Source: Escherichia coli (GTDB lineage: Bacteria; Pseudomonadota; Gammaproteobacteria; Enterobacterales; Enterobacteriaceae). From it: a stretch of DNA of 64,000 nt. Under the pieces are notes generated by a model. It was not told where the DNA came from, ran no database searches, and saw only the letters and a list, made by a program, of their open reading frames with translations. The DNA lies in assembly GCF_041248615.1 (NCBI RefSeq), contig NZ_CP158426.1; one strand, written 5' to 3'. This document shows, one piece after another, positions 20,402 through 22,875 of this stretch (the stretch's first letter is position 1; every line of letters begins with the position of its first letter). A program made the translations under genes and the position numbers.

Positions 20402-21099
20402 TCTATTTTAGTTAAGGAGTTGTGTATGTCAGGATTTAAAAAAGGTTTTTTATGGGGCGGCGCGGTAGCCGCGCATCAGTTGGAAGGTGGCTGGAATGAA
20501 GGAGGAAAAGGCATCAGTATCGCTGATGTGATGACTGCTGGCGCTCACGGTGTGCCGCGTGAAGTGACAGAAGGCGTTATCGACGGACTTAATTATCCCA
20601 ATCATGAAGCAATTGATTTTTATCATCGCTATAAAACAGATATTCAGTTATTTGCCGAGATGGGATTCAAATGCTTTCGAACTTCCATTGCCTGGACACG
20701 AATCTTTCCGCAAGGTGACGAACAGGAGCCGAATGAAGAGGGTTTAAAATTTTATGATGATCTGTTCGATGAATGCCTGAAGCAGGGAATGGAACCTGTG
20801 GTGACGCTTTCGCATTTTGAGATGCCTTATCATCTGGTGACAAAATATGGTGGCTGGCGAAACCGTAAACTGATCGACTTTTTCATCCGCTTCGCATCAA
20901 CGGTCTTCACGCGCTATAAAGAAAAAGTAAAGTACTGGATGACGTTTAACGAAATCAATAATCAGGTGAATTTCAGCGAAAGCCTGTGTCCATTTACTAA
21001 TTCCGGTATCTTGTATTCGCCAGAGGAAGATATCAATGAGCGCGAACAAATAATGTACCAGGCGGTACATTACGAGTTAGTTGCCAGTTGGATTTGCCC

Positions 21100-22005
21100 C
21101 TATATTTCCAGACACCTGTTATCACTTAACCCATTACTGGCCTGCTGCCGCAGATATTCCCGTGGCGAGCGATAACCCAGTGCACTATGCGGATGCCATT
21201 CGTTATAATGCTCGAACGCCTCTGCAAGGTTCTTTGCTGCCGTTAACCCGTCTGGTTTAGGCATGATACTGATGTAGTCACGCTTTATCGTTTTCACGAA
21301 GCTCTCTGCTATGCCGTTACTCTCCGGACTCCGCACCGCCGTGTTCTTCGGTTCAAGCCCCAATATCCGGGCAAACTGCCGTGTTTCATTAGCCCGGTAG
21401 CATGAACCATTATCCGTCAGCCACTCTACTGGAGACGCCGGAAGCTCGTTGCCGAAGCGGCGTTCCACCGCTCCCAGCATGACGTCCTGTACTGTTTCAC
21501 TGTCGAAGCCGCCCGTAGTGACTGCCCAGTGCAGTGCCTCACGGTCACAGCAGTCCAGCGCGAACGTGACTCGCAGTTTTTCTCCGTTATCACAGCGGAA
21601 CTCGAACCCGTCAGAGCACCATCGTTGATTGCTTTCTTTCACGGCCACTTTGCCAGTATGTGCCCGTTTCGATGGCGGTACAGCGGTTTTTCGCTCAAGC
21701 AACAGCGCATTCTGGCGCATGATCCGGTAAACACGTTTGGCATTGATCGCAGGCGTACCATCAAGTTCGGCCTGTCTGCGAAGCAGCGCCCATACCCGAC
21801 GATAACCATACGTGGGCAGCTCTCCGATAACATGGTGTATACGGAGAAGCACATCCGTATCATCTGAGTGACGGCTGCGGCGACCATCTTTCCAGTCATC
21901 GGTTCGTCTGAGAATTACGTGCAACTGCGCACGCGACACCCGGAGACAACGGCTGACTAAGCTTACTCCCCATCCCCGGGCAATAAGGGCGCGTGCGCTA
22001 TCCAC
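21100..22005 (-). CDS. insD: IS2 transposase InsD (orfB; DDE integrase domain)
   Basis: 301-aa ORF recognised as IS2 InsD; overlaps insC in the -1 frame. Confidence 0.85.
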
Positions 22006-22328
22006 TTTTTTGCACGCCCGTATTCAACGGCTTCTTTAAGGAGTTCATTTTCCATCGTTTTTTTGCCGAGCAGGCGCTGGAGTTCTTTAATCTGCTTCAT
22101 GGCAGCAGCAAGTTCAGAGGCAGGAACGACCTGCTCTCCTGCGGCCACAGCAGTAAGACTTCCCTCCTGGTATTGCTTGCGCCAGAGAAATAACTGGCTG
22201 GCTGCCACACCGTGTTGCCGGGCAACAAGGGAGACCTTCATTCCCGGTTCAAAACTCTGCTGAACAATAGCGATCTTTTCCTGTGTAGTACGCCGTCTGC
22301 GTTTCTCCGGTCCTAAGACATCAATCAT
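21963..22328 (-). CDS. insC: IS2 transposase InsC (orfA; HTH)
   Basis: ORF track 21963..22373; ATG at 22328 gives the 121-aa [18 protein letters not shown] start. Confidence 0.8.
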
Positions 22329-22875
22329 CTGCTCTCCAATGACTAGTCTAAAAACTAGTATTAAGACTATCACTTATTTAAGTGATATTGGTTGTCTGGA
22401 GATTCATGGGGCCAGTCTACTGGTCAGCAACCCTTATATCGATACATCCGAATGGGGATGGCAAATTGATCCGGCAGGGCTACGTTATTCACTCAACTGG
22501 TTCTGGGATCATTTCCAGTTGCCGCTGTTTATTGTCGAAAATGGATTTGGTGCGGTTGACCAGAGACAAGCTGACGGCACGGTGAACGATCACTATCGCA
22601 TTGATTACTTTGCTTCCCATATTCGGGAAATGAAAAAAGCCGTAGTCGAAGATGGTGTTGACTTAATTGGCTACACCCCATGGGGCTGTATTGACCTGGT
22701 TTCTGCCGGAACAGGGGAAATGAAAAAGCGCTACGGAATGATTTACGTCGATAAAGACAACGAAGGGAAGGGAACCCTGGAACGGATACGTAAAGCGTCG
22801 TTTTACTGGTATAGGGATCTCATCGCCAACAATGGCGAAAATATTTGAGACTTCAGGAAGATATTACGGAGATAT

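Follow-up and report, generated by a model that had tools for sequence, protein, structure and literature searches.

Disruption of the phospho-beta-glucosidase gene bgcA in Escherichia coli NRZ14408 by IS2, with a probable IS2-associated flanking deletion

Within the window analysed here, a stretch of 64,000 nucleotides of Escherichia coli DNA, a GH1 phospho-beta-glucosidase gene is split by a copy of the insertion sequence IS2, which lies between two non-adjacent parts of the coding sequence. How did a single element come to occupy this position, and what has the strain lost as a result? The window is identical (100%) to part of NZ_LT599825.1, the E. coli NRZ14408 chromosome, its base 1 corresponding to base 2,659,672 of that record, which is a finished chromosome included in the complete-genome collection. 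The split gene is already flagged as a pseudogene in public annotation, where RefSeq lists two partial GH1 pseudogenes flanking an IS3-family transposase. As argued below, it is highly probable that this locus is a strain-specific pseudogene of bgcA, formed, in the history we favour, by insertion of IS2 and a subsequent IS2-associated flanking deletion; it is an ordinary, routine case of IS-mediated pseudogenisation.

The GH1 gene is the last member of a six-gene sugar cluster placed between eamA and marB, in which annotation and domain matches reveal a divergent GntR regulator, PTS components IIB, IIC and IIA, a porin and a phospho-beta-glucosidase (see table). NCBIfam GntR matches to the regulator are weak, falling below the cut-off; its protein accession is identical to that of strain 144, and the regulator, IIB, IIC, IIA and porin genes together differ from those of strain 144 at 2 of 4,737 bases. 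PMC3585215 gives the content of the bgc operon as bgcR, genes for PTS IIB/IIC/IIA, a porin gene and the gene for the phospho-beta-glucosidase BgcA, and the secondary literature describes BgcR as a GntR-type activator and assigns bgc to extraintestinal E. coli (Neelakanta, Sankar and Schnetz 2009, via PMC3585215 and PMC4488073). The published operon and the cluster in the window share the same gene content and order, and differ in the hydrolase gene, which in the window is interrupted by IS2 and has lost codons 222-337. An identical arrangement occupies the same eamA-marB site in strain CFT073, and it is probably this same cluster that appears in PMC2831201 as c1955-c1960 of that strain, six genes given as ‘PTS system, cellobiose specific’. 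Because the cluster matches the published bgc operon, the interrupted GH1 gene is identified, on the basis of gene content and order, as bgcA, the last gene of an accessory beta-glucoside/cellobiose PTS operon. On the strength of secondary sources, the published map position and allele of bgc are here taken to be those of the window locus. Approximately half of the complete E. coli genomes (2,561 of 5,426) carry bgcA.

Strain 144 (NZ_CP023364.1), which harbors an uninterrupted gene of 1440 bp (479 aa) at the same locus, provided the intact reference allele. Both fragments map onto this allele and therefore belong to one gene, as had been proposed, and their alignment sizes the deletion at 348 bp: nt 664-1011 are missing, corresponding to 116 codons (residues 222-337 of 479). 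The initial annotation, which had estimated fragments of ~221 and ~142 aa and a loss of ~110 residues from a protein of ~475, was essentially right, as the measured values are 221 and 142 codons, with 116 of 479 residues missing. It was also correct in reporting no 5-bp target duplication: the five bases flanking IS2 are CCAGT on the left and CTGGT on the right. The single mismatch between the C-fragment and the strain 144 allele is its first base; apart from this base and the deletion, the flanks match the intact alleles of many genomes at 100% identity.

The reading frame had been described as resuming in frame beyond the element, which applies to the host DNA considered by itself, the 348-bp deletion being a multiple of three, but not to the locus as it stands: the two fragments lie in different frames (20426 mod 3 = 2; 22420 mod 3 = 1), because the length of IS2, 1331 bp, is not a multiple of three. 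Translation of the N-fragment would run into the element and soon terminate, and a chimeric ORF reads from the IRL region into the C-fragment (see table). A consensus scan found no promoter-like site upstream of the chimeric ORF, and the scan for promoters and terminators gave no signal above shuffled expectation.

Features of the bgc cluster and of the interrupted bgcA gene in the window (positions are those of the window; nt numbering is that of the strain 144 allele)
Feature	Coordinates	Strand	Basis or remark
GntR-family regulator (bgcR-type), intact	15689..16387	-	Divergent from operon; RefSeq annotation
PTS lactose/cellobiose-family EIIB, intact	16586..16897	+	Annotation, profile search
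PTS EIIC, 440 aa, intact	17011..18333	+	Pfam PTS_EIIC, annotation
PTS lactose/cellobiose EIIA, intact	18361..18672	+	Pfam PTS_IIA, annotation
LamB-type carbohydrate porin, 557 aa, intact	18728..20401	+	Pfam LamB and Sugarporin_N, annotation
N-fragment of GH1 gene, codons 1-221	20426..21088	+	nt 1-663 of strain 144 allele, 0 mismatches
N-fragment frame continuing into IS2: 28 foreign codons, then stop	21089..21175	+	ORF 20420-21175, translation
IS2 variant of 1331 bp; transcription opposed to that of GH1 gene	21089..22419	-	Termini match IS2 ends exactly
IRR, donor end, CA-3' terminus, adjoins N-fragment	21089..21129	-	Exact terminus match, end alignment
IS2 orfB frame, 301 aa	21100..22005	-	NCBIfam ‘IS2 transposase TnpB’ 700.8 bits, cut-off 597; Pfam rve
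IS2 orfA, 121 aa + stop	21963..22328	-	NCBIfam ‘IS2 repressor TnpA’ 273.5 bits, cut-off 229
Chimeric ORF, 169 aa, from IRL region of IS2 in frame into C-fragment	22339..22848	+	ORF list
IRL, recipient end, TA-3' terminus, adjoins C-fragment	22378..22419	-	Exact terminus match, end alignment
Junction base C, directly outside IRL	22420	+	T in every intact allele
C-fragment of GH1 gene, codons 338-479 + stop	22420..22848	+	nt 1012-1440 of intact allele, 1 mismatch

The element itself is readily assigned. Its identity as IS2 and its start at position 21089 were given correctly in the initial annotation, but its end lies at 22419 rather than 22418. In length, imperfect inverted repeats (41/42 bp), orfA/orfB frameshift and DDE/rve transposase it is a member of IS2, an IS3-family element that transposes by a copy-out/paste-in route via figure-of-eight and minicircle intermediates; the 5-bp target duplication is lacking, which bears on how this copy arose and leaves its assignment to IS2 unaffected. 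orfA and orfB are joined via a -1 frameshift at an A6G run (22005-22011), as read in the sequence and as in canonical IS2, and RefSeq annotates a joined transposase CDS (21100-22328) with the note ‘programmed frameshift’; Pfam matches within the element comprise HTH_Tnp_1, rve and rve_3. The two ends, aligned by hand, differ at positions 2, 5 and 7, and IRL contains one extra base, the same asymmetry published for IS2 (PMC3219604); the properties of IRR and IRL as donor and recipient ends are those described in PMC3299598 and PMC3219604. Compared with canonical IS2, which it matches in length, ends and frames, the copy in bgcA is a sequence variant (95.5% identity to canonical copies, 99.0% to a copy in strain W150), distinguished by the missing duplication and by an odd base adjoining IRL. 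The element is apparently intact. That this odd base might belong to a 1332-bp IS2 with an extra terminal base is ruled out by the 99%-identical W150 copy, which directly abuts its own target duplication.

Against the NCBIfam 6-phospho-beta-glucosidase subfamily PRK09589 (cut-off 624), the protein encoded by the intact strain 144 allele reaches 1034.9 bits, and it aligns end to end with solved GH1 enzymes (Streptococcus mutans 3PN8/4F66/4F79, Lactobacillus plantarum 3QOM and E. coli BglA 2XHY; E = 1.8e-240 to 3.3e-204), its best matches being the Gram-positive 6-phospho-beta-glucosidase structures 3PN8/4F66 (E = 1.8e-240). Like these enzymes, it retains the NE and ENG catalytic motifs. The NRZ14408 copy, by contrast, has lost the part lying between its two catalytic glutamates: the acid/base Glu176 (TFNEIN) is encoded on the N-fragment, the nucleophile Glu377 (IVENGFG) on the C-fragment, and the FSYYMS motif (residues 313-318) falls within the deleted part. 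Whereas the strain 144 allele is a full-length GH1 gene, the Pfam GH1 profile is covered in the window only at positions 5-199 (N-fragment) and 323-452 (C-fragment), and no single polypeptide carries both glutamates, which are parted by IS2 and encoded in different frames. In GH1 enzymes these residues are located on barrel strands 4 and 7, and strands 5 and 6 would therefore have been lost with the deletion. Because Glu176 and Glu377 reside on separate fragments, the BgcA hydrolase is predicted to be dead, and excision of IS2 could not be expected to restore it. The initial proposal that the GH1 gene was inactivated by IS2 and the loss of ~350 bp is thus borne out, both by mapping onto the intact allele and by the GH1 profile positions that remain.

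The event appears to be private to one strain. Of the 5,426 complete genomes of E. coli, NRZ14408 alone gave full matches to 100-bp probes spanning each junction, and a precursor allele, with IS2 at either junction and a target duplication, was found in none of them. In 2,536 of its 2,561 carriers, bgcA is uninterrupted across 80% or more of its length; large disruptions are thus rare (~25 carriers), which suggests that the gene is usually maintained, and IS2 lies within it in only two of ~2,560 carrier genomes. The NRZ14408 chromosome is rich in IS2: a query consisting of the N-fragment, IS2 and the C-fragment matches 13 places, compared with a median of 4 per genome. When the 348-bp segment was appended to this query, the number of places remained 13 and the best covered only 87% of its length, ruling out transfer of the segment to another site on the NRZ14408 chromosome, from which it is absent.

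Fifteen other IS2 loci were available for comparison, of which 11 exhibit a clean 5-bp duplication beginning directly at both termini, one a 4-bp duplication, and three none. The clean duplications are TGATC (strain W150, in bgcA), AAATG (APEC E123, in the porin gene), GCTGG (13P484A), TACTG (plasmid pEC57-2-112k), GACAT (one locus, shared by DLI.6n and VR50) and CCAAG (DETEC-P829), in addition to those at five loci in other species. The bgcA copy of NRZ14408 therefore belongs to the rearranged minority of IS2 loci. Some IS2 copies in other genomes have flanks resembling those of the NRZ14408 copy, but these proved to be ordinary insertions with clean duplications (GACAT, CCAAG, GCTGG and TACTG); the likeness is attributable to chance, such cases having been picked from thousands of copies, and does not speak for a target preference.

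The base at 22420 deserves separate consideration. All 2,543 records holding this stretch have T at the corresponding position, and none has C. NRZ14408 and strain 144 differ at only about two other sites over ~8 kb of flanking sequence, making the chance of an unrelated substitution at exactly this position of the order of 5e-4; with no intact allele containing C and so low a local density, an unrelated SNP is rejected as very unlikely. The C may have been left over from the first target duplication, or carried in with the element as a spacer base. A CCAGT duplication, as expected from IS2 insertion at the left site, would begin with this base, an agreement that would arise by accident about one time in three, and an argument drawn from a single junction base is a weak one. 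No similar junction-base pattern is seen at any of the other 15 loci.

Taken from the end product alone, the order and mechanism of events can be reconstructed in more than one way, of which we favour a history that begins at the left site. A single copy of IS2 would have inserted at nt 659-663 of bgcA, duplicating CCAGT, and DNA on the IRL side would then have been lost through an IS2-associated flanking deletion. Such a deletion would have removed CAGT together with nt 664-1012 (353 bp), leaving one duplicated C next to IRL, and would thus have started one base outside IRL, which would be the bond attacked by the transposase in Step I. Flanking (adjacent) deletions by insertion sequences, like deletions by recombination between copies, are classical for IS1 and IS26. 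The locus in NRZ14408 likewise retains one IS and one unchanged flank, has lost the adjoining DNA and lacks a target duplication; it differs from the classical cases in that the favoured deletion would begin not at the IS end but one base beyond it, and in that the mechanism is inferred for IS2. In Step I, IRR becomes joined at a point one base beyond IRL (PMC3299598), and for IS2 we found no published precedent, in the literature examined, of a deletion beginning at this point. Microhomology-mediated deletion was rejected, as no base is common to both breakpoints under the favoured reconstruction, and a TGGT repeat (nt 683-686 and 1013-1016) was dropped as a candidate, since it would need a second deletion of 18 bp. 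A bolder reading would take the retained C as marking the exact phosphodiester bond, one base outside IRL, that is hit by the transposase in figure-of-eight formation, the locus then being a natural footprint of a Step I intermediate whose nick became a flanking deletion of host DNA; this reading as a whole is very doubtful, and no description of such a route to IS2-adjacent deletions was found in the literature examined. A survey of one genome per species, which yielded 23 IS2 loci of which 9 were usable, was too small a sample for testing the retained-spacer idea.

The insertion with adjacent deletion proposed in the initial annotation is therefore upheld as regards IS2 and the deletion, while ‘adjacent’ describes one of at least two histories, with no precursor allele among the 5,426 genomes to decide between them. 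Two IS2 copies might instead have inserted in the same orientation ~350 bp apart (nt 659-663 and ~nt 1012-1016), with homologous recombination then deleting one of them and the DNA between, which would yield exactly what is seen in outline: one IS2, non-matching flanks and a deletion within the gene. The abundance of IS2 in NRZ14408 (13 places, against the median of 4) is in keeping with this course, as is the lack of duplications at 3 of the 15 other loci, rearranged copies being common. We nevertheless consider it unlikely, as it demands two hits in a gene in which IS2 is so seldom found, predicts TTGGT at the right junction and so leaves the C at 22420 unexplained unless an extra junction mutation is invoked, and has left no relative with a single or double insertion among the 5,426 genomes.

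A history starting from the right site would account for the C differently. Here, a minicircle cut one base outside IRL would have inserted at TGGTC (nt 1013-1017), carrying in the C as a spacer, and a one-ended intramolecular strand transfer of IRR into nt 663/664 would have deleted the DNA next to IRR. A 1-bp spacer of host DNA is indeed present at about 90% of IS2 minicircle junctions, in Step I IRR alone serves as donor (PMC3299598, PMC3219604 for both), and the joint between IRR and the gene lies exactly at the IS2 terminus, as expected of one made by transposase. Published Step II cleavage, however, falls exactly on the termini (PMC3299598), an additional base separating IRL from the duplication is seen at none of the 15 other loci, and the spacer could have been any base, whereas the left-site history predicts C specifically. 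This right-site history as a whole seems to us quite unlikely. Highly improbable, finally, is an artefact of assembly, in which the gene is in fact intact or the assembler collapsed a pair of IS2 copies flanking the 348-bp segment: IS copies are classic collapse points, but the record is a finished chromosome from a complete-genome collection (the assembly presumably being long-read based), the segment is not an orphan elsewhere but absent from the whole chromosome, and a private change of the junction base is not something that simple collapse would make. We therefore retain the left-site insertion, with its flanking deletion, as the favoured account.

The consequences for the strain are probably modest. 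Because IS2 is situated in the last gene, polar effects on the rest of the operon would not be expected, and marRAB should be untouched, as bgcA is both convergent with marB and last in its operon. E. coli possesses further phospho-beta-glucosidases (BglA, BglB, AscB and ChbF). The initial suggestion that the sugar operon is non-functional holds for its dedicated hydrolase, which is the only loss that sequence comparison demonstrates, but goes too far for the remainder, as the other five genes (regulator, IIB, IIC, IIA and porin) are intact and the operon is listed as cryptic. In PMC4488073, bgc is included among the E. coli beta-glucoside operons considered cryptic, and such operons are described as requiring prolonged selection on a beta-glucoside to become active; since bgc is so listed, the phenotypic effect of losing bgcA is probably small.

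For NRZ14408, then, the finding means that one multidrug-resistant clinical E. coli isolate lacks the hydrolase of an accessory beta-glucoside operon. As no other of the 5,426 genomes shares the event, PCR across its junctions could provide a marker specific to the clone. Gene decay caused by insertion sequences is commonplace in E. coli, and apart from correct annotation the case has little importance; the unusual base next to IRL offers a minor clue to the way in which IS2 may make flanking deletions.

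At the junction between the IS2 element and the 3′ fragment of bgcA, the 6-phospho-beta-glucosidase (GH1) gene that closes the bgc operon, the base immediately external to the left inverted repeat (IRL; window 22420) is C, in place of the T found in all intact alleles (2,543 records). An insertion at the opposite junction is expected to duplicate the target CCAGT, whose initial base is likewise C. A 169-codon open reading frame (window 22339-22848) begins within the IRL region and continues in frame into the C-terminal GH1 fragment, and a consensus scan found no promoter-like site upstream of it.

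Downstream, the GH1 gene and marB converge on an intergenic inverted repeat with perfect 9-bp arms, CAGGCTCTG tgat CAGAGCCTG (window 22876-22897), which is probably a terminator hairpin common to both genes. The consensus scan did not call this repeat as a terminator, because it is not accompanied by a T run.

Independent insertions in the same operon, affecting either the GH1 gene or the gene encoding its LamB-type carbohydrate porin, were found in other strains, and are listed below together with further genes of the window. Separately, an IS2 copy in Enterobacter sichuanensis (locus L018, 8694-10024) is apparently flanked by a 4-bp target duplication (GCTA) rather than one of 5 bp.

Insertions in the bgc operon of other strains, and additional genes in the window
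Feature	Location	Details
IS2 in GH1 gene	W150, locus L002, 3864-5193	target duplication TGATC
IS2 in porin gene	APEC E123, locus L003, 3001-4331	target duplication AAATG
IS1B in porin gene	strains 15.TR.026_OXA and Nord1	sequence-search matches
2-oxo-tetronate isomerase fragment	window 11065-11145	small gene remnant; RefSeq annotation
Helix-turn-helix regulator fragment	window 60687-60944	small remnant, lacks N-terminus; RefSeq annotation
'ECSE_1600 family' autotransporter gene	window 45514-50934	very large (1806 aa); flanked by lsrK and hipBA

The yneK gene is full length in NRZ14408 (window 26235-27350), while the CFT073 copy is a short remnant (locus L031, 11337-11438). The NRZ14408 chromosome (NZ_LT599825.1) contains 13 places matching IS2, versus a median of four among E. 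coli genomes with at least one; NRZ14408 is an IS2-rich strain.
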